This document shows, one piece after another, positions 2,796-52,674 of a DNA stretch of 64,000 bases (positions are counted from its first letter, which is position 1; each line of letters begins with the position of its first letter). This stretch comes from a virus (lineage: Duplodnaviria; Caudoviricetes), in the IMG/VR virus record IMGVR_UViG_3300046170_000287, positions 643-64,642 of that record; one strand, 5' to 3'. The notes beneath the pieces were generated by a model. That model made no database searches and was not told the DNA's origin. It saw only the letters and a program-made list of their open reading frames with translations. The position numbers and the translations under genes were made by a program.

Positions 2796-3232
2796 CTGTT
2801 TTTATCTTTGTTTACGTTATAAATAGCTTTAGTCATAACTTTGTCAGTGTATGTTTCGCCATTAATTATTTTGTTTCGTCTACCTGTATTTATATCTTCT
2901 TCACCAAGCATTATTCTGTATATTCTACTTATAAGTTGCTTGCCTTTAAAAGATACTTTATATATATGGTACTTTTGAGTGGTTCTGTTTCTGTGCCTCC
3001 AGACTTTAATCCAGTCTTGTTTCAACAGCCTATTCCAGCGCCGGTTATCCCAACTGTAAGAATAAACACCCATTTCAAAGTCTTTCTTGGTGAAAAACTC
3101 TATACAATCAAGGTATATAAGAAGTTCCAGATCTGCATCGTTTAAATCATTATTACGACAAGCCCATTTTCTTATAATACGATAGTGCTTTAAGAGGTTT
3201 AGTTCTCTAATGTCACTAGCGTCTAATCTCAT
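2792..3232 (-). CDS. Putative winged-helix (MarR-like) DNA-binding protein
   Basis: LNDADLELLIYL...RLLKQDWI...YKVSFKGKQLI pattern resembles wHTH; translationally coupled to groES. Confidence 0.45.
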   Translation of the reverse strand: MRLDASDIRELNLLKHYRIIRKWACRNNDLNDADLELLIYLDCIEFFTKKDFEMGVYSYSWDNRRWNRLLKQDWIKVWRHRNRTTQKYHIYKVSFKGKQLISRIYRIMLGEEDINTGRRNKIINGETYTDKVMTKAIYNVNKDKNR

Positions 3233-3489
3233 AATACAACGACTATGTCACCTGACTTTATAACGTGATAAGATTTTTTATCAACTTCTATTTTATGGCC
3301 AGCATGACGATCAAAGTATATAGTATCGTTTTTTTTAACGCCTGCTACTTCTTCACCCGCAGATACAACACTTGCTTTAACGTAGCGTATATCTTCTCTC
3401 TGGCTTTCTGCAAGAAGTAAACCACCATCTGTCTTAGTAGTCCCTTCTTTTTCTTTTATTATAATTAAGTTTCTACCTATTGCCTTCAT
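3229..3489 (-). CDS. groES: Co-chaperonin GroES (Cpn10)
   Basis: KTDGGLLL mobile loop, VVSAG, VKKND, VIKSGDIVVV; adjacent to groEL. Confidence 0.9.
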   Translation of the reverse strand: MKAIGRNLIIIKEKEGTTKTDGGLLLAESQREDIRYVKASVVSAGEEVAGVKKNDTIYFDRHAGHKIEVDKKSYHVIKSGDIVVVL

Positions 3490-12708: not shown

Positions 12709-12896
12709 GTCATGACAGACTGTCACTGACCAACACTATTACTATAAATTAAACTAATAAATAATTATACACCTATAAATAAAACTAATATGAGAAAATT
12801 CATTCACACTATCATCTTGAAAATCAGTAGCTTTAAACTATCTGACTATGTAGAAATTGGCAGTTCACCTGATGAAACAACTTGGAGATAACAACT

Positions 12897-12936
12897 TCAC
12901 AAACAAAATACAATATCCTTTGGATAATATAATAAA
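12897..12936 (+). promoter_or_regulatory. Early-type promoter motif, copy 2
   Basis: TCACAAACAAAA-N13-GGATAATATAATAAA. Confidence 0.7.
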
Positions 12937-13094
12937 ATACTAACTAATAAAATAATAATACTATGTCTAACAAATCTTACACCTTACTAAAAATATCACT
13001 CAGAGTTTTCAAAAAACATTACCTTGAACTTACAGATGAGCAAAAGTCTGAAGTGTTAGACATATACTATGATTTCTATTAAAATAATATAACT

Positions 13095-13346: not shown

Positions 13347-13640
13347 TTATGAAATATATAACAATACTAGATTTTTCAGAAGGTAAAGTATACCAATATG
13401 AAATACAAGATGACCAATATGAATCAACAGAAAGCTTAGAATCATTCATATGTGACAAAGGTTTTAGCCTAGGTAACATTGAGTGGATGAGTCACTATGA
13501 TAAAAAAATATACTAACTATGAAAACAAGTAAAAAAAGAAAGTTTTCACACCATAAACTACTACAAGCTCAAATTAAAATGCTTGAACAAGAGTATTATG
13601 ATAGATTAAATGCTGAGATACCTCAATGGCAACAAGAGCT

Positions 13641-13680
13641 TTACAAATAAAATACAATAACTATTGGATAATATAATAAA
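13641..13680 (+). promoter_or_regulatory. Early-type promoter motif, copy 3
   Basis: TTACAAATAAAA-N13-GGATAATATAATAAA. Confidence 0.7.
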
Positions 13681-13687
13681 CAAAACT

Positions 13688-13879
13688 ATGCAACAAATAA
13701 AATTCTTACCAAACAACCAAATTCGCCTCGGCACTAAAACCTACAAAGGCTATCATGTCGGCGAGCTACCACCTAAATTTGCTTTTATCTACAACGAAGA
13801 TGAAGACAAAGATGGCGTCAGCGAATGGTTCAACTACAAAGGTCTAACTTATATTGAAAAAGTTGAGCTCCCATGGTAG
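13688..13879 (+). CDS. Early hypothetical protein (start moved to ATG 13688)
   Basis: The track's TTG start lies inside the promoter motif; AACT-ATG at 13688. Confidence 0.6.
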   Translation: MQQIKFLPNNQIRLGTKTYKGYHVGELPPKFAFIYNEDEDKDGVSEWFNYKGLTYIEKVELPW

Positions 13880-14737: not shown

Positions 14738-14924
14738 AATGAAAGAAATAGATTCGATAGCGCAAGGCGTAGCGGATCACTGTTGGGAAATACTATATGA
14801 TAGTGTTGCTTGGCAAATAGCAGATCAGCCTGTAAACGGTGATGATTACAATGATCTTCACGCTGATGTAATGGATCGAGCAATCGAATACCTTTACAAA
14901 CAAAATACAAACGCTGTTGGATAA
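14730..14924 (+). CDS. Early acidic hypothetical protein
   Basis: Operon packing. Confidence 0.6.
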   Translation: MSKMKEIDSIAQGVADHCWEILYDSVAWQIADQPVNGDDYNDLHADVMDRAIEYLYKQNTNAVG

Positions 14925-14933
14925 TATAATAAA
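14894..14933 (+). promoter_or_regulatory. Early-type promoter motif, copy 4
   Basis: TTACAAACAAAA-N13-GGATAATATAATAAA. Confidence 0.7.
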
Positions 14934-14940
14934 CAAATAT

Positions 14941-15129
14941 ATGTATTGCAAATGTGGTCAAACCGTACACCCAGTACGGATCGAGTTAGGTTATAGAACG
15001 TGTGTTCAGTGTTCAACAACTAAAACGTACAGTTATGTGCCTATCATCGAGCACAAGACAGGTAATACAATACAAATCGTCAGCCAAGAGGTGAGCGCTT
15101 CAGTTCACAGAGCTTGGCGGCGTAAATAG
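14941..15129 (+). CDS. TraR/DksA-like C4 zinc-finger protein
   Basis: CKCGQTVHPVRIELGYRTCVQC resembles the DksA/TraR finger (C..C...I...RL....C..C). Confidence 0.5.
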   Translation: MYCKCGQTVHPVRIELGYRTCVQCSTTKTYSYVPIIEHKTGNTIQIVSQEVSASVHRAWRRK

Positions 15130-15181: not shown

Positions 15182-15347
15182 TAGCTAGACGAGTAGCTTA
15201 ATTAGGTTAAAGTAGGCGAGAACAGACACCTTGTAACTTTAACACATAAGTGAATTGCTAGCGGGAACTAGGTCAGGTTAGAGACGCAAGACAGGCTTCG
15301 CGACTCAGGCTACCGACGGGTATGAGGTTCGAATCCTCACTAGTTAC
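15182..15347 (+). ncRNA. Structured RNA ending in a tRNA-like T-arm/acceptor domain with no canonical anticodon arm
   Basis: T-arm TGAGG-TTCGAAT-CCTCA; AACTAG/CTAGTT acceptor-like stem; GTTAAAGT/ACTTTAAC stem upstream. Confidence 0.55.
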
Positions 15348-15350
15348 AAA

Positions 15351-15429
15351 GGGGGTGATATGGTTTTGACGTAGTAAAAAGCCTGCAAAGGAATTACTAC
15401 GGAAGACAGTTCGATTCTGTCCACCTCCA
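15351..15429 (+). ncRNA. Minimal tmRNA-like RNA (tRNA-like domain only)
   Basis: 5' GGGGGTGATATGGTTTTGAC tmRNA-type start; acceptor GGGGGTG/CACCTCC with G3-U70 and A73; T-arm GACAG-TTCGATT-CTGTC; P2-like CGTAGTAA/TTACTACG closed by CCT-GCAA-AGG. Confidence 0.75.
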
Positions 15430-15450
15430 CTAATTTTAAAACAAGAACAA

Positions 15451-15654
15451 ATGCCAAATATGAGTTATTGTCGGTTTGAAAACACCGTCACAGACATGAG
15501 AGATTGCATAAATGCGATCGAAGATCGAGAAACAGATGAGCTTAGCAACTATGAAGTTAATGCTCTTTCAAATTTTTTAGATCTTGCAAGAGAAATTACT
15601 AACCTCGAATATGAAATCGAGCAAATACTAGGTGAATATGACAGCAAAAGTTAG
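15451..15654 (+). CDS. Early hypothetical protein (NMSYCRFENT)
   Basis: ORF with A-rich leader. Confidence 0.65.
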   Translation: MPNMSYCRFENTVTDMRDCINAIEDRETDELSNYEVNALSNFLDLAREITNLEYEIEQILGEYDSKS

Positions 15655-15910
15655 ACAAATGACAAGTAATAGCTCAGGTAATCCTGTAGCTAATCAATTC
15701 GTTATATATACTGATGAAGGTACTTACTTTCAAAGCTATGACAGCGTTATTGCTTTTAGAGATAATAATCGTAAAATTATACTAGATAATTACCATTGGG
15801 ATTACTCACGTACTACAGGTAAATACCGTAATCAATTTTTAGGTGAAGGTATTGTAGATACAAGAGCTAAGATAGAATCAGGTGAGTATGAACTAGCAGA
15901 TCTTAACTAG
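15638..15910 (+). CDS. Conserved-looking phage early protein (NQF...FQSY...YSRTTGKY)
   Basis: Motif pattern seen in small phage early proteins; function unknown. Confidence 0.65.
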   Translation: MTAKVRQMTSNSSGNPVANQFVIYTDEGTYFQSYDSVIAFRDNNRKIILDNYHWDYSRTTGKYRNQFLGEGIVDTRAKIESGEYELADLN

Positions 15911-15950
15911 TTACAAACAAAAAACAAACACTAACGGATAATATAATAAA
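15911..15950 (+). promoter_or_regulatory. Early-type promoter motif, copy 5
   Basis: TTACAAACAAAA-N13-GGATAATATAATAAA. Confidence 0.7.
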
Positions 15951-15958
15951 ATAAAATT

Positions 15959-16207
15959 ATGAAAAGACTTACACTTTACGAAAGACTAAAGCCCGAAGTT
16001 AAAGGCGCTTTACTATCAAACATGGCTAAATATGAAGGTACTATCACAAGTATCATTGAAAAGCTTAGCAACGAAACATTTTATTCTAATCTAACAATCA
16101 GTGACATTAGCTCATTATATACATTTTCAGATATAGAACTTATTAAAGTTTCTGCTTGGGATTTTAAATACGGCGATAACATTCTAACATCTAAAGACTA
16201 TGAATAA
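15959..16207 (+). CDS. Early hypothetical protein
   Basis: ORF directly after promoter motif. Confidence 0.65.
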   Translation: MKRLTLYERLKPEVKGALLSNMAKYEGTITSIIEKLSNETFYSNLTISDISSLYTFSDIELIKVSAWDFKYGDNILTSKDYE

Positions 16208-16861: not shown

Positions 16862-16934
16862 TGACTCATGGTGTAATTGGTAACACGTCTGGTTTTGGTC
16901 CAGAAGAGTTCAGGTTCGAGACCTGATGAGTCAA
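16862..16934 (+). tRNA. tRNA-Gln (anticodon TTG)
   Basis: Full cloverleaf: TGACTCA/TGAGTCA, GTGT/ACAC, TCTGG-TTTTGGT-CCAGA, TCAGG-TTCGAGA-CCTGA; CCA not encoded. Confidence 0.93.
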
Positions 16935-16953
16935 CTAATTTTAAAATAAATAA

Positions 16954-27296: not shown

Positions 27297-29018
27297 ATGT
27301 GGAACAATGAATGGAAAAAAGGAGAGGATTACCCTAAATGGGGTGATACGGACGTATACAAAAAAACTATCGCTGGTGGGTATTTACTACAAGATGAAAC
27401 ACCACGTGAAGCATATACAAGGGTTGCTAAGACTGTTGCTAGACGATTATATAAGCCGGAAATGGCAGACACGTTTTTTCAGTATATTTGGAATGGTTGG
27501 CTCTGTTTGGCTAGTCCTGTGTTATCCAATACAGGTACTGATCGTGGTTTACCTATTAGCTGTTTTGGTATCGATGTGGCTGATTCTATACAAGATATTG
27601 GACAAAAAAACTTAGAGATGATGCTACTCGCTAAGCATGGCGGTGGAGTTGGTATCGGTATAAATCAAATAAGACCCGCAGGCGCTAAAATTACAGGCAA
27701 TGGAACAAGTGATGGCGTTGTGCCGTTTTGTAAAATATACGATTCGACAATACTTGCCACTAATCAAGGATCTGTCAGACGAGGAGCTGCATCAGTTAAT
27801 ATTAATATTGATCACCCCGATTTCGATGAGTGGCTTGAAATACGCGAACCCAAAGGTGATGTCAACAGACAATCACTTAACATGCACCAGTGCGCTGTGG
27901 TTGGCGATAAATTTATGCGACGAATTGAACAAGGAGATAGAGACGCTAGAAAACGTTGGGGAAAATTACTTCAAAAGCGTAAAGCTACTGGCGAACCTTA
28001 CATCCTTTTTAAGGGGAATACAAATAAAAATAACCCACAAGCCTATAAAGACAACGGCTTAAAAGTTCATATGACAAACATATGTTCTGAGATCACATTA
28101 CACACAGATGAAAACCATAGCTTTGTATGTTGTTTATCATCTTTAAATTTAGCAAAGTATGAAGAATGGAAAGGTACAAACCTTATATACGACGCCACGT
28201 GGTTTCTTGATGGCGTTATGGAGGAATTTATTCAAAGAGCAAAAGGACTTAGAGGTTTTGAAAATGCCATTCGTTCTGCTACAAAAGGACGAGCACTTGG
28301 GTTGGGTGTACTCGGATGGCACACGTATCTCCAAGAAAAGAGCATTCCTTTTGAAGGTCTTCTTGCTCAGTTTGAAACTAGGAAAATATTTTCGCAAATT
28401 AAAATCGAGTCTGAACGCGCTAGTATGGCTCTTGCTGAAGTTTATGGCGAACCTTTGTGGTGTGCTGGTAGTGGTTATCGTAATACTCACCTTAGGGCTA
28501 TTGCTCCCACTGTTAGCAATTCAAAGCTTAGCGGAAACATTTCACCCGGAATAGAACCTTGGGCTGCAAATGTATTTACAGAGCAATCAGCTAAAGGAAC
28601 TTTCATAAGAAAAAACCCTACACTTTTAAAATTATTTAGAAAACTTAAAATTAATAACAATGAAACATGGGATAAAATTCTGGCAGATGGTGGTAGTGTT
28701 CAAGGTCTATCTGAGCTTGATGGGATTACAATGGGACCTCACGATGTACCAGCTAAAGACGTTTTTAAAACGTTTAAAGAGATCAATCAACTCGAACTAG
28801 TAAATCAAGCTGGTATTAGACAGCAATACATAGATCAGTCTGTTAGTTTAAACTTAGCGTTTCCTAGCGTAGCTACACCTAAGTGGATCAACCAAGTTCA
28901 TATGTCAGCATGGAAAAAAGGTATTAAAACCTTGTACTATACTAGAACTGAATCAGTACTACGTGGTGATATAGCGCAACAAGCTATGAGTGAAGATTGT
29001 ATTGCCTGTGACGGATAA
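27297..29018 (+). CDS. nrdA: Ribonucleotide reductase class I alpha subunit (no ATP cone)
   Basis: SPVLSN, PISCF, GGGVG, TNICSEI, VCCLSS, APTVSNS, KTLYY, C-terminal CIAC. Confidence 0.95.
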   Translation: MWNNEWKKGEDYPKWGDTDVYKKTIAGGYLLQDETPREAYTRVAKTVARRLYKPEMADTFFQYIWNGWLCLASPVLSNTGTDRGLPISCFGIDVADSIQDIGQKNLEMMLLAKHGGGVGIGINQIRPAGAKITGNGTSDGVVPFCKIYDSTILATNQGSVRRGAASVNINIDHPDFDEWLEIREPKGDVNRQSLNMHQCAVVGDKFMRRIEQGDRDARKRWGKLLQKRKATGEPYILFKGNTNKNNPQAYKDNGLKVHMTNICSEITLHTDENHSFVCCLSSLNLAKYEEWKGTNLIYDATWFLDGVMEEFIQRAKGLRGFENAIRSATKGRALGLGVLGWHTYLQEKSIPFEGLLAQFETRKIFSQIKIESERASMALAEVYGEPLWCAGSGYRNTHLRAIAPTVSNSKLSGNISPGIEPWAANVFTEQSAKGTFIRKNPTLLKLFRKLKINNNETWDKILADGGSVQGLSELDGITMGPHDVPAKDVFKTFKEINQLELVNQAGIRQQYIDQSVSLNLAFPSVATPKWINQVHMSAWKKGIKTLYYTRTESVLRGDIAQQAMSEDCIACDG

Positions 29019-31463: not shown

Positions 31464-34400
31464 TTATTTATCCATTAATTCTAAAATCTTTTCAACTCTA
31501 TTTTTCTCGTATCTAAGATCTCTTATTTCTTTTTTAGTAAGCCCAAACTTGGTTAATGTTTTAACTTGATCTGGTTTATTTTCTGCTTTAATAGAGTCAA
31601 ATTGTCTTCTAAGTTTAGCTTCATTTGATTCTTTTGGTTTTACAACTTCAACTTCTTCACCATCTACAATAACTTTAGAATCTTCTTTAGCTTTCTGTAA
31701 TTCAATTATTTTTTTAACTCTATTGTTTTCTTTACCTAAAGCTTTTATTTCTTTTTTAGTAAGACCTAAATCTAAAAGCATGTCTATTTGATCTTTAGTT
31801 TTAGTATCTTTTTTCATTGTATCAAACTCTCTTTGTTGTATCTCTTCAGGCGTTGGATCTGCTTTTGCATCCCAACCTCCATAATAAGGAAGACCTACAT
31901 CGTATGTAGAGTAACCAGCTGCTAAAGCTATTTTTTGCCACTCAGCTGTTTGTTCGCTTAATATACCTCTTATGTTATTAACTTTTTTAACAACACGATC
32001 TAAAGGCACGTTTGTAAATGCAGTAAATATTTGTGATCCTGCTAAATAAGCTGGGTTGTCTAAGCTAAAGCCTTTTTCTTTAATCTCCTTCATGTTCCAG
32101 CTAAAGCTTTTTAAACCACCTACTATTTTTCTATATTTAGAACTAATAGCTGGTGAAAAACTTAAAGCTTCTATAGCAGCTTTTTCGTACTCAGGTCTTT
32201 TTTTGTCAGACTCTGATATTATTTTTAGCACTGTATTTTTAGCAGCAACCATAGCTGCCCCAGCAATACCTAAACCTTTTAACTGAGAATCTATCATGCC
32301 GTTAGCAACTCTAGTTATTTTTTGTTCATTTCTTGCCTTTAACTTAGGATCTTTTTCATCTTCATCACTACCAAAACCTATAGCGAATAAAGCCTGTTGC
32401 AGTGAGTTAAATATTAAATTTTGTATAGCGCCGTAATAAGCTATTTTAGATATGTGTTCTTTAGCATCACCACGACCTGCTATTAAATCTTGCGCAGCTC
32501 TTTTTTGTATTCTAACGTACTGCATTGGAGTATTAGCCCAGTTAAGTATAACACGACCAGCGCCAGAAGCTTGCTGCATACTAATTTTAGAAGCATCACT
32601 AGACTGCTGACTTTCTTCTGCAACATCTTTAAAGTCTTCAAATGCTTTTTCTTCTGCAAGTTTTTGATCCATGCCTTCTTTAGCATACTTCTTAATTCTG
32701 TTTCTATAAAAAGTAGAACCACCAGAAGCTATAGCAAAACTATCTGCATATCTAGTAAGAACAAAACCTTTACTAAGTAAATATGATATAGCGGCATTAA
32801 CTTTGTTTTTAGAGTCTTTAACAGCATCAGCTATTTCAGATTCACTTACGTTTATTTTAAGACCATTACGACGCTGAACTAGATAGTCAGAGTTCATGAG
32901 CTTCATAAAGTCTCCCCAGAACTGTTTTTGGTTAGCAAAAGCTTTACCTGCCGCTATAGGATTATTATCACCCCAATTTAAAAAGTTTACAGAAGATATA
33001 GTTTGAAGAAGTGCAGATCTAGTATTTAAGAACATCACGGCACCAACAGAGTTGTTAGTCCAGTCTAGCACTTTATTTGTTATTTCACTACCACCAATTG
33101 GTCTATTACTACCTGACTTCATTCTACGAAGAGTATCTTCTAAAGCTTTACGCCATCGAGTACCATACGCAGCTTCCATTTTATTTAGATTTTCAGGTGA
33201 AAATATAATGTCTACATTTTCTCTAAAAGTCTTTTGGTATTCTGCTCTATTGACTTTGTTTATACCACCTATTATATCAGTAGTTAAATTACCCGCTAAC
33301 CAGTTTTTACCAGGTTCAGGATATCCTTTACCTTTTTGACTTACTATAAGTTGATCTGCAAATGTTTGAAGCTCAGAGCTATCAGTTACAAATTTATTTA
33401 GTTTTATTATATCAGCCTTTGATAAACCAGGTATTGACATACCTTGTTTGGTCCACATATAAGTTCTAAGAGCATGCTGATATGTAAATTTACCTACACC
33501 AGTTTCTTTTTTAAGCGTAGTAGGTATAGTCTTATACATGGACTTTAATGCCATGAAGTCATTAGCAGCAGATATCTTAGCTTGTATAGCTGAGTCTTCT
33601 GCTCTGTTGTAAGGATCAATAAGATTGTTTTTAAGGAATTCAAAATGTGCTTCACCTTGTTTGCCTTTACCTATCATTTTATACAGTAAACCTTTAAAGT
33701 CTTCAGCTGATGAAGCCATTGTAAGCCAATCAAATCTACCTTTATTTTCACCTAATGTTTTAGCTTTAGCAGCAGAAAAAGTTTTAAAAGCTTCAATACC
33801 GCTACTAGCCTCTATCATTTCATTAGTTATAGTATTAAAAGTCTTAGCATTACTAAACTTAGCTTGTTGTACCTTGCCTTTAACATCAGCTTGATCTAAC
33901 ACTTCTTTTACGGCTTGCACGTTTTTAAGCGCATCATCAGCAAAATAAAAATCATTATAACCTTCAGATACTTTATCCATGATCCATCGGCCTTTAGCAC
34001 TAGCTTTACCATCAGCTAGTCCAGTTATATTTTTTAAAGGTATATCAATACCTAAAGCTTTCATAAATTCTCTTATAGGACCAGCGGCATCTTGAGGTCT
34101 AGCTGTTAATACAAATAAATCTTCTGTACCTCTTGCGTCTGCTATTTTTTTAGCTACATCAAACAAAGGTCCTTTCTTACCATCAACTACTTTACTAAAT
34201 TCGCTAAAATCAAACTTAGCTCCTTTGCTTTCTAATTCAGCGGCTCTTTTAGCAAACTCTGTTGCGTTTATTTTAAATGTCTCACCACTTGGAAAATCTT
34301 TTAAAACTCTAGCTTGTTGCTCTTCGTTTAAATTTTCAAAGTTTTGTTTAGAGCTAGGCTTGTTTTCAAATTCTTTTTTAAATATTCTTCTAGCAGCAAT

Positions 34401-37400
34401 ATCAAGCATTTCTATGTCGATTGGTCGACCTGGCATTTCAACTAAAACCTTACTATTAGATCTAGCTAATGTATCGTCAAAATCAAATACTCTAATTTTC
34501 TTTTCTTTCTTAGGTACTGGCTTACCGTTCTCTATATTTAAAGATCTTGAGTTTTCTAATGCTGCGTCAGCTGCTCTTAAGTTTTCAACAACAGCTTCAT
34601 TTGTAGCGGCTTTATCAAATCTAAAAGAACTAGATGCTAGCTCATTCATTTTAACTGCACTCTTAGCTTTTGGATCTACAACTTTCTGTAACTCTTGATA
34701 ATCTTTTTTAGCTCTTTCTCTTGTTATTTCTCCTGTTAAAACTTTTGTTATTAGTTCATTAACAACTTTAGAATTTTCTAATATCTCAAAAGGTGTTGTT
34801 ACTTTTTTAGATTTACCTACAAAAAACTCACCAATAGATTTTTGTGTTTTAGTAAACGCGTAGGCAAAAGGATCAATAGTGTTTTCAATAGTATACCTAA
34901 CAAGAGATGCTGTGCCTTGTGGTAAAAAATCTAACTTACCCTCTCTTACCGCATTAAGAACTTTATCATAGTATTCAGGAGGTAAATTTTTATCAAGAAA
35001 AACAGATAAACCTTTGTCATCATTATACCGTAAAGCACCTTGACCATATATAGCTTTTATGTCTTTAAATTCTTGTTTAACCGTTCCTCTTTTAGCTGCT
35101 TCTAAAAGCATTAGCCCTATTTTATTAACAGGAGCCATATGCTCTTCTTTTACTTTAACTGAAACTGCTTTACCCGTTAAACGGTTTATAGGATAGAAAA
35201 CAAGTGCTGCTCCAAATCTATTCAAATGACTCTGACCTTTTGCACTATCCCTTAAAAACTGTTCAAATATTCCGTACTTACCTTTGCCTTGTTTTGTTTT
35301 TAAAAACTCTTGTATTTTTAAGTAAAAATTTTCTACTTCGTCTAATCTAAATTTATTATTCCTAAGAATACTACCATCTCTTAAACCTTTATTGACTTTA
35401 CCAGCTAAAAACATTTCAGCAGCAGCGTATGTAAATCTAGTGGCTTTTCCTTCTCTTATACTTTTTCCATATAATTTTTCAAAAGTTGGAATATCTCTAA
35501 AGGTTAAATCTCTTCCACCCGTCATGCTTTGCTCTACATATCTTTGACCTTCAGGGTAGAATTCAAAAAATGATTTAAAATCTTTTACAGCCGCTTTATA
35601 CTCAGGAGATTTTGTATCTATAATAGTATAGCCTTTTAATAAACCTGTTTTTTTAGACTTTTCAAAAACTTTATCCCTTACAAAAGACGGTTGAGTGTAT
35701 TTTAATTCTTCACGCTCTTTACCTGTTGTAATCTTAGGCACTTTTTTATCTTCACTAAACTTAGCACCCAGTTTTGCTCTTTGACCCGCATTACCTTCTA
35801 AGTATTCTAAAGCATTGTTTTTAAAATAAGAAGCTAATACTACTTTTAAAGGTTGAGATCTTCTGTATAAAGGAACTGGTTTACCATTTTCAAGTGGATT
35901 AAACTCTAGAGGCTTACCGTCATAACCTTCTACTGTTATATTTTTACCTGAAATTATATCTCTAAGTGTTTTTAAAGATCCAGGTTTTAAATCACCTTTT
36001 TCAGTTAGTAGTGCTTTACCTACTTTTGTTTGCTTAAATCCAGGTGTATTAATTCTAGAGTGTATAGCTTGTAAGTTATCTAATATAAATTGCTTAGCTC
36101 TAGTCGCTGCAGCTTTTTCACCAGCAGGGAAATTCCTATTAGGTATCATTAAAGCTTTTATACCAGCCTCAGACTCAATGCCGAGCATTTTAGCGTAAAA
36201 CTCTGCTAATGATCTAGGTGTTTTTAAGTCTTTATATTTATTAATATCTATATCTTTAAAGCTGTCTAGTACTTGAATTTTTAAAGCTTCTTGTATTGCT
36301 TGCTCAGATGTCTGTCCTTCTTTTACTTCAATGCCTAGGTTTTCTACAAACTCAGGTTTCATTTTAATTTCAGAAGGCAATCGCTTGGTTGCAGTTACTT
36401 TTTCTTTTTCTTTAGTTGTTTCTTCAACAGCAACATCTTTCAAACCAACTAAATCATCTACAGAACTATCAAACTCTTTACCTAGATTTCTATCTGCTAT
36501 TTCTATGTATCTTTTAAATCCGGTTTTAGTAGAAAAACTATTATTTAAAAATAAAGACAAATCACCTACTTTATCTCCTTTTTCAACTTTAGCAGCATAG
36601 TCATTAATAACATCTAGCATACCTCTTTTACCTGTCATTATTTCATCAACAAGTAATTGTTCGTCATAACCTGGTCTGTTCTTAAATCTTCTTGCCAAAG
36701 ATATAGCTGTAGGTCTTAATAATTCTAGTATTTCAAAGCTAGCTCCTTTGCCTTTTTCTTCAAATAATTTATTAACAGTATTTGAATTATTTTTACTTAA
36801 ACTAAACGGAGCTGATGGAGCTGCTAGCTCTAAGTTTTCTGTAGTTGTTTCAACTTCAACTTTTTTAGGTGTTTCTTTTATTTCAACTCTGCCAAGATCT
36901 TGAGCTTTGAGCATGTCAAAAATACCTTTACCTGTTTCAGGGTTTACTTCTATATTAGGTAAGAAGCTTTTAAACGCAGGTACTAAACCAGCTAAGCCTT
37001 CACCAAAGCTTTTGCTAAATTCTATTTCACCTCTTTTAATAAGCTCAGCCAGTACAGTTATGTTTTCTTCATACCACTTTTCTTTAGATTGACCTACGTC
37101 ATATCTAGAGGCTAACTCTTCGTCTAACACTTGTTTTTGTCTTGGCGTAAGTTTACCTAATACACCATCGATCATCTCTATACCTTCAGGTGTTACATTG
37201 CCTTCGGCGTCTTTAAAAGAATCTTTTAATATTGAGTGAGGTATTTCATGAGTAACTGGCGTAAAGTTTCTTTGTTGTAAAGCAAACTCTCTGTTGATAA
37301 CTTTATTACCGTCTTTATCTGTAAAAGCTATTTTGCCTTTAACATCTTCTGCTTTAAATCCAGACTCATCATACCGTTGTTGAAACTCCTCTGGCGTTCT

Positions 37401-40400
37401 AGCTTCAACTACTGTGCCTTTAGAAGGATCTGCTTGCTTTATATCTTTTTCATAAGCGGTTATAGCAGCGCCTTGTAGTTCTGACTGTATGTTGTTGTAA
37501 AGTTCACCGCCTTTTATATACTTACTTAGCTCTTGCTCAGCGCTTTTTGTAGCCTGCTTGTTTTCAAGAAGTTCAGATTCTGATAAATTATTTTTATCTA
37601 ATTTTTTTAATCTATAAATTTCTTCGTTTAGCTCTTGTTTTTTTAGTAAAAACTCTCTAGCATTTTGTCTAGCTGTTGTTCCTTTTGGTGATACAAACTC
37701 TATAGGATTTAAAGGCTGCAAACCATATGGCGTTAACATAAAAGACTTACCATTTAGTTGAGCTTCTATTAAAGATTCATTTAATATTAAATTTTGTAAA
37801 TAAGAATCGTTAACAGAATTTTTTTGTATACCTAATCTTTTATAAAGCATACCTACGCCGTCTAGCCCATAATAAGATAATACTTCTCCGTCTCTATCGT
37901 TTAGCTTTTCTCCGTTTTTTATTTTTTGAGACACTAGATAAAACTCAGATTCTCTTGGGGCATTACCAGCGTTTTTCTCTGCTTGAATTAATTCATAGGC
38001 AGCATTGACAGCTATTTGAGTGTCAACTACTCTGTAATCTTCTTTTAGCTTTTTAAATTCAGCGTCAGCCTCTTGTTTAGTTATCTTACCTTCTCTTTTT
38101 CTTTTTAGTAAGTCGTTTACTTTATTATCAAAAGCACTGTTAAGTTCTGCTTTTGCGTTTTCTTCAGGTGCTCTTAAACCTTCTGGAGCTTGTGTAGTAG
38201 TATCTGTTTCTAGTTTAATTACTGAGGTTTCAACACCTAGTCTTTGCGCAGATTCTTTAGCTTCTAAATCTAATCTACCGCTAGTCTTAGCGCTTATAAC
38301 ATCGCTTTTAAATTCTTTGCCAATGCTTCGCATGTTGGGTATAGCCTTAGTAAAAGTCCCAGCTATAATCATTTTTATAGTTTCAACAGCTTGAGTATGC
38401 AGGGAAACAGTTAAATTACCTTGTTCGTCAAATAAACCGCCAGTAACGGCACCTCCAAACTGATATGTAGTTGCGCCACCAAATCCACTACCAACAGATC
38501 TTGAAACTCTTTTATAGGTATTAGGAGTATATTTTGTTAAAGCGTTTACAACTGGAGAGAACATTCTACCCATTTTAGATTTACCTAAAAACTTAACAAA
38601 AGGATCATACATAGAGTGACCTACTGCTAACGATGCTCCAAATCCTGCAGAAGAAGGTAATTCTTCTAAACTAAAATCTCCTGTTCTATACTGGCCAACT
38701 ATAGTACCTCCAGTAAAAGTTGTGGCTTGACCAAGAGCTGCGTTTGCTGTTTTAAAAGCAGGTAGCGCATATGGTATTTTTGAAAACTTTTTGCTCTGTG
38801 TAGCTAGTTTATTTGCCCATTTTTGTGTTTTACCTACAATATTACCACTACCTCTAGTAAACAAATACACATCACCCATCCAAGCTAATAGATCTGGTGC
38901 GGTAGCACCTATCTCTTGCCTCATGCTCTCTGGAGCCTTAAGGCCACCTCCTGGTATTTGTATGGCTAAAGAGTTATTTAAAGCTTCTTTGCTTGGAGTA
39001 AAACCATTAGTTTGCATCCAGTTTAAATAAGTATCTTTAACTTGTCTGTCTGTAGGAGCTGCATCACCACCTAGTAAATTAACTGTAGCAGTGTAAAATT
39101 CATCAGTAAAACCCCCTTGTTCTGTTGTTAAAGGATCTCTATCTAGCTGAAAAGCTCTGTTTACTATTTTATAATTTTCTACAGCGTCATTAAAAGCTTT
39201 TATAAGAGGGTGACCATCTTCGTCGTCTATAGCTCTTACGTCTAATTTTTCTAAGTAACCAGGAAGTCTACCATTTAAAGCTATTTCTTCTACTAAGCTA
39301 GATATATCTTCAGTCCATTCAAATCCTTTTTGACCTTTATAACCTCCATTTTTACTAAAAAAACTAGGATCATTGGCAGCGCCACTGTTTACTTTATCCC
39401 AGTTATATATCTCTTGCGCTAAACCAACAATTTTAAAATAATCATTATTTAGTTTTTGTTTTAAAACATCTTTTTCTGTTGTATCAGCTAATTTTTTAGC
39501 CTTTTGAAAAAGTTCTATTTCAGATTCTTGTACTTCATCAAGGTCTAGGTTTTTTATCTCATCTCCAAAAAATAATCTTTCTCCATAATTTTCTTTAGAA
39601 GCTTCTTTGTCTTGCTCTTCAGGGCTTAATTCTAAAAACTTTAATTCATTTTTAGTAAGAAACTGCTTACCGTCTTGTAAAACTTCATCAATACTTACGT
39701 CGTTGAATTTTAAATTAGCTTGAGATCCTAAGTAATCAGTTCTATAATTTTGTACACTAGAAATATTTACAGCCTTAGATCCATCGCTTCTTTCTTTTTC
39801 AGCTTCTCTAGAGCTTTTAATTGTAGGAAAATAACTACTTCCTATTGAGTTTCCATATTTATCTAAAGAAGATTGTATAGCGGGTTCATTGTTTGTCTCC
39901 CACACTTGATTTCCTAGTTGATTGTTTAAATCTACAGGATCATATTTTTGAATTACAACTTCATCTATTGTACCTATAGTTCCTTCAAAGTCTTTGTTTT
40001 GTGTATAAGTTATTATTTCAGCATTAGGAACTTTTGAAACATAATCTTTTACATTTTTAACATTTTCAAATCCGGGTTCTTTATTGTCAATTCTTTCTTG
40101 AATCTGATTAAAAGTGAATTCATCAAAACCTGTTTCACCTCTAGGTATTATAACTCTACTTTCAAAATTAACTTCTCCATTTTCTAGTAGATTAACACCT
40201 TCTCGCTGTGCTTGTTTTTTAGATTTAAAATCTTTTTTAGCTTTATCATGCTTTGCTTTTTGCTTTTCGTACTCTTCAAGCTGCATGTTATATATTACAT
40301 TTTGCCCAAACTCAAGAGTTCCAAAGCCACCTGTAGTGTCACTTAAGCCTTGTACAGGAGATATATTTAAACCATAATCATCTTGATATAGTGATTGTCC

Positions 40401-40622
40401 ATTTCCAGAATCTAAAGCTTCGGATCCTGTATTGCTTTGCGACTCCTCGATCGGATCCTTTATTTCCGGGGAGTCTTGTATCTTTACTTCTTCAACCTCT
40501 ATTGCTTCTGGAGCTTTATAGCTTGTAGATGCTTTCCACTCCTCTATTCTTCTCTTCATCTCTGTAGGATCAAGAGGAGGTTGAATAGCTTGTAGTTCTT
40601 GTACTTTTTCTACTAATGTCAT
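31464..40622 (-). CDS. Giant (3052 aa) polyvalent internal virion/ejection protein with HExxH and HAD-like domains
   Basis: THEIPH...EE zincin-like motif; RVFDFDDTL...VLTAR...K...FADD HAD motifs I-IV; follows the ejection-protein genes. Confidence 0.7.
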   Translation of the reverse strand: MTLVEKVQELQAIQPPLDPTEMKRRIEEWKASTSYKAPEAIEVEEVKIQDSPEIKDPIEESQSNTGSEALDSGNGQSLYQDDYGLNISPVQGLSDTTGGFGTLEFGQNVIYNMQLEEYEKQKAKHDKAKKDFKSKKQAQREGVNLLENGEVNFESRVIIPRGETGFDEFTFNQIQERIDNKEPGFENVKNVKDYVSKVPNAEIITYTQNKDFEGTIGTIDEVVIQKYDPVDLNNQLGNQVWETNNEPAIQSSLDKYGNSIGSSYFPTIKSSREAEKERSDGSKAVNISSVQNYRTDYLGSQANLKFNDVSIDEVLQDGKQFLTKNELKFLELSPEEQDKEASKENYGERLFFGDEIKNLDLDEVQESEIELFQKAKKLADTTEKDVLKQKLNNDYFKIVGLAQEIYNWDKVNSGAANDPSFFSKNGGYKGQKGFEWTEDISSLVEEIALNGRLPGYLEKLDVRAIDDEDGHPLIKAFNDAVENYKIVNRAFQLDRDPLTTEQGGFTDEFYTATVNLLGGDAAPTDRQVKDTYLNWMQTNGFTPSKEALNNSLAIQIPGGGLKAPESMRQEIGATAPDLLAWMGDVYLFTRGSGNIVGKTQKWANKLATQSKKFSKIPYALPAFKTANAALGQATTFTGGTIVGQYRTGDFSLEELPSSAGFGASLAVGHSMYDPFVKFLGKSKMGRMFSPVVNALTKYTPNTYKRVSRSVGSGFGGATTYQFGGAVTGGLFDEQGNLTVSLHTQAVETIKMIIAGTFTKAIPNMRSIGKEFKSDVISAKTSGRLDLEAKESAQRLGVETSVIKLETDTTTQAPEGLRAPEENAKAELNSAFDNKVNDLLKRKREGKITKQEADAEFKKLKEDYRVVDTQIAVNAAYELIQAEKNAGNAPRESEFYLVSQKIKNGEKLNDRDGEVLSYYGLDGVGMLYKRLGIQKNSVNDSYLQNLILNESLIEAQLNGKSFMLTPYGLQPLNPIEFVSPKGTTARQNAREFLLKKQELNEEIYRLKKLDKNNLSESELLENKQATKSAEQELSKYIKGGELYNNIQSELQGAAITAYEKDIKQADPSKGTVVEARTPEEFQQRYDESGFKAEDVKGKIAFTDKDGNKVINREFALQQRNFTPVTHEIPHSILKDSFKDAEGNVTPEGIEMIDGVLGKLTPRQKQVLDEELASRYDVGQSKEKWYEENITVLAELIKRGEIEFSKSFGEGLAGLVPAFKSFLPNIEVNPETGKGIFDMLKAQDLGRVEIKETPKKVEVETTTENLELAAPSAPFSLSKNNSNTVNKLFEEKGKGASFEILELLRPTAISLARRFKNRPGYDEQLLVDEIMTGKRGMLDVINDYAAKVEKGDKVGDLSLFLNNSFSTKTGFKRYIEIADRNLGKEFDSSVDDLVGLKDVAVEETTKEKEKVTATKRLPSEIKMKPEFVENLGIEVKEGQTSEQAIQEALKIQVLDSFKDIDINKYKDLKTPRSLAEFYAKMLGIESEAGIKALMIPNRNFPAGEKAAATRAKQFILDNLQAIHSRINTPGFKQTKVGKALLTEKGDLKPGSLKTLRDIISGKNITVEGYDGKPLEFNPLENGKPVPLYRRSQPLKVVLASYFKNNALEYLEGNAGQRAKLGAKFSEDKKVPKITTGKEREELKYTQPSFVRDKVFEKSKKTGLLKGYTIIDTKSPEYKAAVKDFKSFFEFYPEGQRYVEQSMTGGRDLTFRDIPTFEKLYGKSIREGKATRFTYAAAEMFLAGKVNKGLRDGSILRNNKFRLDEVENFYLKIQEFLKTKQGKGKYGIFEQFLRDSAKGQSHLNRFGAALVFYPINRLTGKAVSVKVKEEHMAPVNKIGLMLLEAAKRGTVKQEFKDIKAIYGQGALRYNDDKGLSVFLDKNLPPEYYDKVLNAVREGKLDFLPQGTASLVRYTIENTIDPFAYAFTKTQKSIGEFFVGKSKKVTTPFEILENSKVVNELITKVLTGEITRERAKKDYQELQKVVDPKAKSAVKMNELASSSFRFDKAATNEAVVENLRAADAALENSRSLNIENGKPVPKKEKKIRVFDFDDTLARSNSKVLVEMPGRPIDIEMLDIAARRIFKKEFENKPSSKQNFENLNEEQQARVLKDFPSGETFKINATEFAKRAAELESKGAKFDFSEFSKVVDGKKGPLFDVAKKIADARGTEDLFVLTARPQDAAGPIREFMKALGIDIPLKNITGLADGKASAKGRWIMDKVSEGYNDFYFADDALKNVQAVKEVLDQADVKGKVQQAKFSNAKTFNTITNEMIEASSGIEAFKTFSAAKAKTLGENKGRFDWLTMASSAEDFKGLLYKMIGKGKQGEAHFEFLKNNLIDPYNRAEDSAIQAKISAANDFMALKSMYKTIPTTLKKETGVGKFTYQHALRTYMWTKQGMSIPGLSKADIIKLNKFVTDSSELQTFADQLIVSQKGKGYPEPGKNWLAGNLTTDIIGGINKVNRAEYQKTFRENVDIIFSPENLNKMEAAYGTRWRKALEDTLRRMKSGSNRPIGGSEITNKVLDWTNNSVGAVMFLNTRSALLQTISSVNFLNWGDNNPIAAGKAFANQKQFWGDFMKLMNSDYLVQRRNGLKINVSESEIADAVKDSKNKVNAAISYLLSKGFVLTRYADSFAIASGGSTFYRNRIKKYAKEGMDQKLAEEKAFEDFKDVAEESQQSSDASKISMQQASGAGRVILNWANTPMQYVRIQKRAAQDLIAGRGDAKEHISKIAYYGAIQNLIFNSLQQALFAIGFGSDEDEKDPKLKARNEQKITRVANGMIDSQLKGLGIAGAAMVAAKNTVLKIISESDKKRPEYEKAAIEALSFSPAISSKYRKIVGGLKSFSWNMKEIKEKGFSLDNPAYLAGSQIFTAFTNVPLDRVVKKVNNIRGILSEQTAEWQKIALAAGYSTYDVGLPYYGGWDAKADPTPEEIQQREFDTMKKDTKTKDQIDMLLDLGLTKKEIKALGKENNRVKKIIELQKAKEDSKVIVDGEEVEVVKPKESNEAKLRRQFDSIKAENKPDQVKTLTKFGLTKKEIRDLRYEKNRVEKILELMDK

Positions 40623-51873: not shown

Positions 51874-52674
51874 TATAGACTTATAGATCTCAACACCTTC
51901 ATCTGTTTTTAAGAAAGCAGCAAATGCTGAGTAAGGGTTTTCGTCAAAAGGTACATTCATTAGTTTTCTACCGTTTGATCCCCATGTAAATGTTCTTTGA
52001 TCACCTGATAGATTAATTATACCAGCTTCAGCAGCTCTAATAGCTGTATTTCTTAATTGAACATTGTCATCATTAGCTAAGCTAATAAATAATTGTGGGT
52101 TAGATCTCGCGAATAAACGTATGTCTCTTTTAAGTTCTTTAGAGCTCATGTCATTTACTTTTGAGCCAACTTCTACTCTTAAAATAGCTTCAATTTGATC
52201 TATCTCCATATTTCTAGCTGCATTTAAAGCATCAATCTGCATGTCTAAAACATCTAATTGATCTTCAGCTTCTGCCACAGCACTAAACTCTTCATATAAC
52301 TTACCTTTTAAAGGGTGGTATAAAGATAATAGTTTTTGTAGATTTTGTTTTTCTTTAGGAACACGTAAAGATCCGTCAATAAATCTAATGTGACCCATTG
52401 TGCATTCACCTTTTTGCTCATCTACTAGTGGTGAATCTTGATTTGTAGCATATCTTATTTCTCTTTGTTTACCTGTTTTTGTGTCAAAATAAAGTAAAGC
52501 GTGTTTTCTAGTATGCTTACCAGGTATTGTAAGAGTTAAAGGAGATTTATTTCCTTTTAAATAATAAATTCTATCTTTAATTTCCCACTCATTTTTTGTG
52601 GGTTTAGGAGCGGTTTTTACCGCAACCTCTTGAGGTGCAACCTCAATAGTTTCTGCTGTAGCTTTTTTAGCCAT
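51859..52674 (-). CDS. Capsid-region hypothetical protein
   Basis: Directly downstream of the major capsid gene. Confidence 0.65.
   Translation of the reverse strand: MAKKATAETIEVAPQEVAVKTAPKPTKNEWEIKDRIYYLKGNKSPLTLTIPGKHTRKHALLYFDTKTGKQREIRYATNQDSPLVDEQKGECTMGHIRFIDGSLRVPKEKQNLQKLLSLYHPLKGKLYEEFSAVAEAEDQLDVLDMQIDALNAARNMEIDQIEAILRVEVGSKVNDMSSKELKRDIRLFARSNPQLFISLANDDNVQLRNTAIRAAEAGIINLSGDQRTFTWGSNGRKLMNVPFDENPYSAFAAFLKTDEGVEIYKSIDKKL

Follow-up and report, generated by a model that had tools for sequence, protein, structure and literature searches.

Phage-encoded transfer-messenger RNAs (tmRNAs) pared down to their tRNA-like domain (TLD) are already known as a kind and barely described. Mycobacteriophage DS6A was entered as 'TLD only' by Hudson, Lau and Williams (2014; PMC4131195), and the 2025 tmRNA database paper repeats this entry and adds plastid genes of about 65 bp that lack a coding sequence (PMC11915505). 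Titration of the host protein SmpB has been proposed for the DS6A RNA (PMC4131195; PMC11915505), and a TLD-only molecule inhibits tmRNA in E. coli (Mao, 2009, cited in PMC4131195 and PMC11915505). Here we describe an RNA gene of about 80 nt on the plus strand (positions 15351–15429, 79 nt, plus a trailer to 15432) of the window, the whole stretch of 64,000 nt that was analysed, which comprises bases 643–64642 of a 64,642-nt IMG/VR virus record (100% complete by CheckV). The element is almost certainly a genuine phage gene for a TLD-only tmRNA (hereafter, mini) and its sequence places it with the DS6A type. The preliminary description of the locus, which knew of no comparable phage system, had overlooked the DS6A RNA already in print (PMC4131195; PMC11915505). 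The literature searched describes no family of TLD-only tmRNAs and mentions DS6A alone; the supplements of the database paper (PMC11915505) may list more, which could lower the novelty at the family level. What is new here is the size of the family, its phage specificity, the selection on alanine identity, the conserved truncation point and the cultivable carriers.

The DS6A RNA (JN698994, 28478–28560; tmRNA Website tmID 11587) resembles the window RNA in being phage-encoded and of similar size (the class of about 65–90 nt), in having no tag frame, and in combining a 7-bp acceptor stem bearing a G3-U70 pair with a stemless D-loop analogue, a T-arm and a short P2 helix that has an A-rich internal loop and a capped stub. 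The cap is of the CCGC-ACG-CGG type (CCGCACGCGG). Its D-loop analogue differs (GCAAUGGUGGUCGAC), so that the RNA scores 43.2 bits against the Rfam model, under the cut-off; it scores 58.1 bits against R1, a covariance model of the family introduced below. DS6A is a temperate phage (integrase gp56) of an actinobacterial host, whereas the window phage resembles podophages of Flavobacteriia and has no integrase. Furthermore, DS6A was reported as a single case and the window RNA is part of a family.

Organelles and engineered molecules offer further comparisons. The tmRNAs of jakobid mitochondria and the genes of about 65 bp in Mallomonadaceae plastids are conserved TLDs without a tag frame or pseudoknots (PMC3985003; PMC11915505), which we liken to the phage RNA by description. 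These are cellular genes that replace the only tmRNA of the organelle, whereas the phage mini is an extra copy that would act alongside the full tmRNA of its host. The engineered T. thermophilus hairpin of the TLD (PDB 2CZJ; 63 nt) joins the 5' 25 nt and the 3' 34 nt by a UUCG sequence and, like the mini, consists of the TLD and the first part of helix 2 under a stable tetraloop cap (PMC3985003). This hairpin binds SmpB and the two together mimic a whole tRNA (PMC3985003). Unlike this artificial molecule, the natural phage RNA also keeps the purine loop between helices P2a and P2b. Full-length phage tmRNAs, such as those of cluster C mycobacteriophages (e.g., Bxz1), Bacillus phage G and Streptomyces phages of the BE type, are homologues of ssrA that often lie in tRNA clusters (PMC4131195). 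They carry pseudoknots and a tag frame (ending in ALAA and a stop in annotated Streptomyces phages), and the window RNA has neither.

Structure of the window RNA

The comparison with the Rfam model of tmRNA (RF00023) that the preliminary description had proposed gave 64.7 bits (gathering threshold, 47; E 6e-23) for positions 15351–15432 (+), and tmRNA is the best Rfam clan match of the RNA. The alignment runs from end to end of the model (positions 1–374), making the TLD homologous to that of canonical bacterial tmRNA along its whole length. In this alignment 12 nt take the place of the 304 central positions, which comprise pseudoknots PK1–PK4, helix 5 and the mRNA-like domain. The minimum free energy fold has the four helices described below (-28.7 kcal/mol, z -3.5) and only 1 of 200 shuffles folded as well. 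A pattern built on the TLD consensus matched the window once and 100 shuffles not at all. Against the family model R1, the window RNA scores 88.7 bits, compared to at most 25 bits for true tRNAs in the sources searched.

The RNA retains the 7-bp acceptor stem with G3-U70, the T-arm and the discriminator A of canonical tmRNA. The 5' strand of the acceptor stem (GGGGGTG, 15351–15357, +; G3 at 15353) pairs with the 3' strand (CACCTCC, 15422–15428, +), where U70 (15426) forms the G3-U70 pair, and the discriminator A73 follows at 15429 (+). The stems are supported by the sequence, the Rfam alignment and the fold, and A73 by the first two. A stemless D-loop analogue, ATATGGTTTTGA (15358–15369, +), precedes C15370 and aligns with high posterior probability to the RF00023 consensus AucuGGaUUCGAC; the stemless segment after the 5' acceptor strand can also be written as ATATGGTTTTGAC. 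This is the tmRNA-specific region that SmpB contacts in full-length tmRNA (PMC8363625). The GG.UU.GAC analogue and the GAC/GGAC junction of the window RNA are predicted to preserve the canonical traits for SmpB binding. The T-arm (GACAG-TTCGATT-CTGTC, 15405–15421, +), also found in the sequence, the Rfam alignment and the fold, is preceded by the linker GAA (15402–15404, +), which is GAC in most family members. The gene ends with the trailer CTA (15430–15432, +) and does not encode CCA, so that the RNA would rely on the host to process its 3' end and to add CCA.

A capped P2a hairpin stands in place of the whole mRNA-like domain and the pseudoknots. The 8-bp P2a helix, formed by CGTAGTAA (15370–15377, +) and TTACTACG (15394–15401, +), leads to a purine-rich internal loop (AAAG at 15378–15381 and AA at 15392–15393, +) and then to a 3-bp stub closed by a GCAA tetraloop of the GNRA class (CCT-GCAA-AGG, 15382–15391, +). 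Sequence and fold agree on these three elements, and the interior of P2 comes to 16 nt. The RNA has no resume codon, tag frame or stop codon, and the 32 nt between the GAC and the linker all lie in one hairpin, leaving no possible reading frame. Every statement of the preliminary structural description (a TLD-only molecule with a stemless D-loop, a GNRA-capped P2 and a T-arm) agrees with the sequence and this fold. An ordinary tRNA-Ala is ruled out: the RNA has no D-stem, its apical loop is the 4-nt GCAA on an arm of 8 bp plus 3 bp, and ARAGORN, whose sole report in the window is a tRNA-Gln (16862–16935), does not call it.

Family size, covariation and alanine identity

A strict scan of IMG/VR for the two TLD halves (GGGGNNGANNNGGNTTNGAC and TTCGANTCNNNNCNNCTCCA, 20–50 nt apart) returned 63 contigs which, with the window, hold 46 distinct sequences. 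A looser pattern (GGGNNNG, a spacer of 2–4 nt and CNNNTCCA) matched at least 119 IMG/VR contigs, 100 of them new among the matches listed. The family thus amounts to at least 163 loci and 129 distinct sequences of 63–90 nt, with a modal size of 78–79 nt (76 of the 129). Only 7 IMG/VR contigs have the TLD halves separated by an insert of 51–81 nt, making the mini form a discrete size class; the spacing of full-length tmRNA (300–330 nt) was found in at least 119 contigs. Model R1, built from the first 46 sequences (environmental phage copies only, without DS6A), scored all of the 100 new loci at 47.9–82 bits. One of the family's contigs, a 59-kb viral contig (L223), has two mini-tmRNAs 1.9 kb apart (1298–1377 and 3208–3291), the second divergent (42.7 bits with R1) yet with G3-U70 and A73. 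The CCA end is encoded in 33 of the 129 distinct sequences.

The mini-tmRNA is phage-specific and almost absent from bacterial chromosomes. Across 185,579 prokaryote species, each represented by one genome, the strict pattern matched a single contig, a 20.8-kb piece of a metagenome-assembled genome labelled 'archaeon' (Rfam tmRNA, 65.9 bits). ARAGORN is the usual annotation tool for tRNA and tmRNA genes in phages. On three family contigs (L002, L005 and L034) it reported a long 'tmRNA' anchored on the 3' end of the mini with implausible tag peptides, and on L005 it also called a tRNA-Val overlapping the mini. Such miscalls are a likely source of wrong annotation in phage records. As the program either misses minis or miscalls them with spurious tags, the minis are under-annotated.

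The collection of homologues and test of covariation suggested in the preliminary description revealed compensatory changes in all three helices. For 52 distinct sequences, 97.7% of the alignment cells held standard pairs, compared to 67.5% in shuffles (none of 500 reached the observed value) and 46–55% with slid partners. The covariation score was 0.76 (at most 0.115 in the controls) and 13 of the 19 pairs changed on both sides. An independent later set of 84 distinct sequences gave 98.1% paired cells (64.2% in shuffles, 42–52% slid) and a score of 0.83. In both alignments the fit to the model favours pairing; from a plain MAFFT alignment, RNAalifold recovered these three helices again, and 12 of 19 pairs had changes on both sides. 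In the family alignments, covariation extends to 6 of the 7 pairs of P2, 4 of the 5 pairs of the T-arm and the acceptor stem, which is a full 7 bp long. The 129 distinct short-form sequences and their covarying helices are not what a one-off deletion relic, a possibility raised in the preliminary description, would leave behind.

The alanine identity elements G3-U70 and A73, which the preliminary description had pointed out in the window, are under strict selection. The first scan fixed G3, U70 and A73 and their constancy there carries no information. We therefore rely on rescans in which position 70 and the discriminator, and then position 3, were freed. Each rescan returned the same 63 contigs, all of them with G3 (63/63) and with U70 and A73 (63/63), and none with G3-C70. 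The 3-70 pair is G-U in all rows of both alignments (52/52 and 84/84 distinct sequences). Furthermore, the copies of phages DS6A, BRock, LuckySocke, Tomas and Nibb, which were found via BLAST or the model rather than the pattern, all have G3-U70.

The central module is conserved as well. Most copies have a P2 of about 8 bp, then an asymmetric purine internal loop (5' side, U/G-A-A-R-N; 3' side, R-A), a stub of 2–5 bp and a stable tetraloop (GCAA, GUGA, CACG, CAAG and others). An A-R-R motif is present in 112 of the 129 sequences and many copies have GAAAGCCGCACGCGGA in common. The 102 distinct full-length tmRNAs of viral contigs have a P2a of 7–8 bp followed by a similar purine loop (for example, GAAG with GGAA; 60 sequences inspected by eye) and then P2b. 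By this comparison of sequences, the mini form corresponds to the TLD plus P2a, the purine loop and a capped stub of P2b. The retention of the P2a/P2b purine loop in the minis indicates that the end-point of the deletion is conserved rather than random.

We also considered a tag of zero length, with a stop codon decoded at the tip of P2. In 82 of the 129 sequences, compared to 45.5 +/- 4.3 in shuffled 8-mers, a UAA, UAG or UGA bridges the end of P2 and the internal loop. The U/G-AAR loop motif accounts for this enrichment, for which we have no other explanation. The idea was rejected because 47 sequences, including DS6A and L191, have no stop, and also because helix 2, much as a long variable arm does, projects outward from the ribosome (PMC3985003; PMC8363625).

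Genomic setting and cultured carriers

PHROGs matches in the window genome include a primase/helicase, a ribonucleotide reductase, a portal protein, a large terminase and structural proteins. The large terminase is 43% identical to that of Flavobacterium 'elemo' podophages, with further matches in Cellulophaga, Tenacibaculum and Maribacter phages; from these sequences, the host is likely a marine member of the Flavobacteriia. A 3052-aa open reading frame (ORF) at 31464–40622 (-), adjoining that of a 1774-aa virion structural protein, has no PHROGs match at 1e-5. An N4-like identity, suspected from this ORF, was dropped for lack of such a match and because the terminase is nearest to those of Flavobacterium and Cellulophaga podophages. 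The genome has no gene for a tyrosine integrase, SmpB, a protein with the release factor 1 (RF-1) domain or Pth.

The mini gene is located among small ORFs of the plus strand, and the 10 ORFs flanking it match no Pfam family. A promoter-like repeat of 57 nt (..CTTTACAAA.AAAATACAA...TTGGATAATATAATAAA..) occurs four times on the plus strand (12890–12946, 13634–13690, 14887–14943 and 15904–15960) and three of the four copies end at the start codon (ATG) of a small ORF. These repeats probably mark early transcription units. The nearest same-strand copy upstream of the mini (14887–14943) is about 410 nt away and the copy at 15904–15960 lies downstream. The gene is in the putative unit starting at 14887, where it follows a 62-aa ORF and stops 19 nt short of the next ORF. 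The mini is probably cut from a polycistronic early RNA. The early promoter invoked in the preliminary description is plausible in view of the repeat upstream, whereas a sigma-70 scan around the mini did no better than shuffles (5 promoter-like sites versus 5.0 expected) and found no terminators.

Close relatives of the window phage have an identical or nearly identical RNA and a different sequence immediately upstream, and contigs from RNA libraries have junctions exactly at 15350/15351. The differing flanks and the junctions at the 5' end suggest that the gene behaves as a mobile accessory module. Directly upstream is a second tRNA-like element (15263–15347, +), which is also present in L022/L062, L035, L039 and L049 and in 5 distinct related contigs precedes the mini by 0–200 nt. 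The element combines a 6-bp acceptor-like stem (AACTAG/CTAGTT) without G3-U70 or CCA, a T-arm (15323–15339, TGAGG-TTCGAAT-CCTCA) that covaries in relatives (GAGAG/CTCTC, GAAGG/CCTTC), and a variable insert of 40–65 nt in place of the D and anticodon arms. Rfam had no match to this element at E values up to 10 and low-stringency ARAGORN models were mutually inconsistent. Two short intergenic motifs further upstream (15183–15198 and 15243–15262, +), a hairpin-like AGCTAGACGAGTAGCT and CACATAAGTGAATTGCTAGC, are conserved in the related contigs L013, L027, L028 and L035. The tRNA-Gln (UUG) at 16862–16935 (+) is ordinary (63.9 bits) and in part shares 94.6% identity with a tRNA-Gln from Cellulophaga phages.

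When the window RNA was compared by BLAST with 50,697 phage records, no match covered more than 34% of it. Of the short matches followed in four phages, that in RaK2 drew no Rfam hit with an E value up to 0.001, those in Lpa804 and Av-05 were tRNAs and that in PA_L9 was a permuted tmRNA. None of the three cultured phages nearest to the window phage has a tmRNA-like gene (0/3). BLAST with three environmental copies led to cultured carriers. Streptomyces phages BRock (KX925554, 97140–97220, -; 64.5 bits) and LuckySocke (OR725497, 17977–18057; 57.1 bits) have unannotated minis in tRNA clusters, just after a tRNA-Val; the portion of the BRock genome announcement available does not mention the gene (PMC7453282). 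Streptomyces phage Tomas (NC_070781) has a divergent mini (L199, 1476–1556; 38.9 bits with R1 and no Rfam hit) and a full-length tmRNA (97147–97421, 104.4 bits). Mycobacterium phage Nibb has a mini of 73 nt beside its integrase (31.8 bits with Rfam and 37.8 bits with R1).

Unannotated permuted tmRNAs, all matching RF04321, were noted in other phages. Pseudomonas phage PA_L9 (L197, 339–723; 115.7 bits) and Acinetobacter phage BUCT628 (L202, 1421–1725; 123.9 bits) are two examples. In Tunturiibacter phage Tunturi_4 (PP885687; L203, 1121–1882; 79.2 bits), the two-piece gene lies directly downstream of gp53, an ArfB-like protein annotated as 'RF-1 domain peptide chain release factor', giving one phage two adjacent ribosome-rescue functions.

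We surveyed the gene content of 47 mini-bearing contigs of at least 30 kb, of which 24 are at least 90% complete. None encodes SmpB (0/47 and 0/24, respectively), which points to dependence on the SmpB of the host. An RF-1-domain (ArfB-like) ORF is present in 2 of the 47, in both cases of about 120 aa (L307, G004 52363–52551; L308, G024 27616–27801), and the one in G024 is about 4.6 kb from the mini. Carriers mostly lack a tyrosine integrase (5/47), and a search with RF00023 found no full-length tmRNA in five large contigs bearing a mini. ARAGORN placed tRNA genes near the mini at 13 of the 50 loci scanned. A dedicated protein partner was sought by clustering ORFs of at least 60 aa within 5 kb of 164 loci and was rejected: the best cluster (RusA-like by eye) is common to 8 of 101 mini clades, and other clusters are portal, terminase and capsid genes.

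Candidate roles in ribosome rescue

The identity of the mini, its family membership, conservation and phage specificity are established. Its retained parts are predicted to provide everything needed for processing, alanylation, binding of SmpB and EF-Tu and entry into an empty A site, and nothing to resume translation. The two mechanisms proposed in the preliminary description, titration of SmpB and EF-Tu and tag-less addition of alanine, are the two live hypotheses. We lean, with moderate confidence, toward an alanine-charged competitor of host tmRNA that would depend on host SmpB and prevent SsrA tagging. Host tRNA-processing enzymes would cut the mini from the polycistronic early transcript, CCA would then be added, and host alanyl-tRNA synthetase (AlaRS) would charge it with alanine via G3-U70 and A73. 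The charged RNA would be bound by EF-Tu and by host SmpB, which the phage does not encode, and would vie with the tmRNA of the host both for SmpB and for stalled, non-stop ribosomes. Since the mini cannot template an SsrA tag, nascent chains on stalled ribosomes would escape tagging for degradation. Freeing the ribosome once alanine transfer is over would fall to a back-up route of the host (ArfA/ArfB-type release or drop-off). The mimicry of tRNA by the TLD and SmpB, the binding of the 2CZJ hairpin and the exit of helix 2 from the ribosome between the subunits (PMC3985003; PMC8363625) lead us to expect that the phage RNA interacts with stalled ribosomes and with the SmpB of the host. That G3-U70 and A73 are so strictly kept speaks for the importance of charging, which a pure sponge would not require.

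Several points weigh against competition with host tmRNA or limit the case for it. Each proposed step, be it processing, alanylation, binding of SmpB or any effect on tagging, is one that we infer from the nucleotides. The published inhibition by a TLD-only RNA was reported to be independent of chargeability (PMC4131195, citing Mao, 2009), which, set against the strict conservation of G3-U70 and A73, suggests selection on something beyond titration. Phage Tomas, having both a mini and a full-length tmRNA, argues against a simple blockade of trans-translation. Because the scans fixed most TLD positions by design, the constancy of those carries no information; free to vary were only the central module, the stems and positions 3, 70 and 73. 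Contigs from four of four RNA libraries cover 15332–15453, a weak hint of expression from assembled contigs that cannot show the transcript, its ends, strand or level and may reflect DNA carry-over, and in which uncovered parts carry no meaning. The benefit to the phage is also not evident from its sequence.

A less probable, still serious alternative is that the mini is a productive rescuer, a helper of translation rather than an inhibitor. The alanyl-mini and SmpB would enter stalled ribosomes, take over the nascent chain and free the ribosome, either through release by host ArfA, ArfB or Pth or by adding several alanines in repeated rounds. In this way, ribosomes caught on host or phage mRNAs that had been cleaved would rejoin the pool without SsrA-directed degradation. 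Such a role would account for the strictly kept alanine identity set, unneeded by a sponge, and for the coexistence of mini and full-length tmRNA in Tomas. It also fits the many minis found in phage tRNA clusters among translation-supporting genes (13/50 loci, and BRock and LuckySocke) and the conservation of tag-less tmRNAs in jakobid mitochondria and some plastids (PMC3985003; PMC11915505). However, the phages do not encode the release step (RF-1-domain genes in 2 of 47 carriers, and no Pth in the window genome), and with SmpB unsupplied (0/47) the total rescue capacity would be bounded by the SmpB of the host. In the one test of a TLD-only RNA that is published, the reported outcome was inhibition (cited in PMC4131195). 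A broader form of this idea, which we regard as doubtful, is that virulent phages of many bacterial phyla carry a dedicated, alanine-charged mini-tmRNA for template-free rescue with host SmpB. Chains on ribosomes stranded by the destruction of mRNA, whether by the phage or by RNases of abortive infection, would receive one or, in repeated rounds, several C-terminal alanines, and the ribosome would pass to a release factor that works independently of stop codons.

It is unlikely that the mini is a passive sponge that merely sequesters host SmpB, with charging irrelevant. The D-loop analogue contacted by SmpB and the GAC/GGAC junction are kept, as a sponge would require. SmpB binding alone needs neither the acceptor stem nor G3-U70 and A73, and yet the full 7-bp stem covaries and these identity elements are invariant where they were free to change (63/63; G-U in 52/52 and 84/84 rows). 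We give very little credence to a decoy for some other host factor, outside trans-translation, that recognises RNAs resembling tRNA or tmRNA (RNase R, a tRNA-modifying enzyme or an anti-phage nuclease, for example). The patchy, accessory nature of the gene (0/3 nearest cultured relatives; mosaic junctions exactly at its 5' end) would suit a decoy, as would the phage anti-CRISPR reported to use tRNA and tmRNA fragments (PMC11662646). However, the sequence points to no such target, and the features kept are those a tmRNA needs for AlaRS, SmpB and EF-Tu. A relic or cis signal (the deletion remnant of a full-length tmRNA, an ssrA attP fragment or an RNase P processing signal) is scarcely credible: temperate phages often carry 3' pieces of ssrA, the Nibb mini adjoins an integrase and the window mini lies between ORFs of a polycistronic-looking early region, but both TLD halves are present, the 129 distinct sequences show compensatory changes in all three helices, a tyrosine integrase is missing from the window genome and found in only 5 of 47 carrier contigs, and a processing signal would need neither G3-U70 nor the SmpB-binding loop nor the P2 internal loop.

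Trans-translation is the main ribosome-rescue pathway of bacteria and a drug target. To our knowledge, the dealings of phages with this pathway are largely unknown. Where the literature searched held one phage TLD-only tmRNA (DS6A), treated as a curiosity, we find a family of at least 163 loci and 129 distinct sequences. Because unannotated minis are present in the cultivable phages BRock and LuckySocke, the question of inhibitor versus rescuer is open to bench tests. If template-free rescue proved true, the mini would be a viral counterpart of tag-less or alanine-tail rescue that uncouples ribosome recycling from SsrA proteolysis, and nucleases cleaving host tmRNA within its mRNA-like domain would leave the mini unharmed. 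The mini-tmRNA thus emerges as a widespread phage accessory gene that would be aimed at the rescue machinery of the host.

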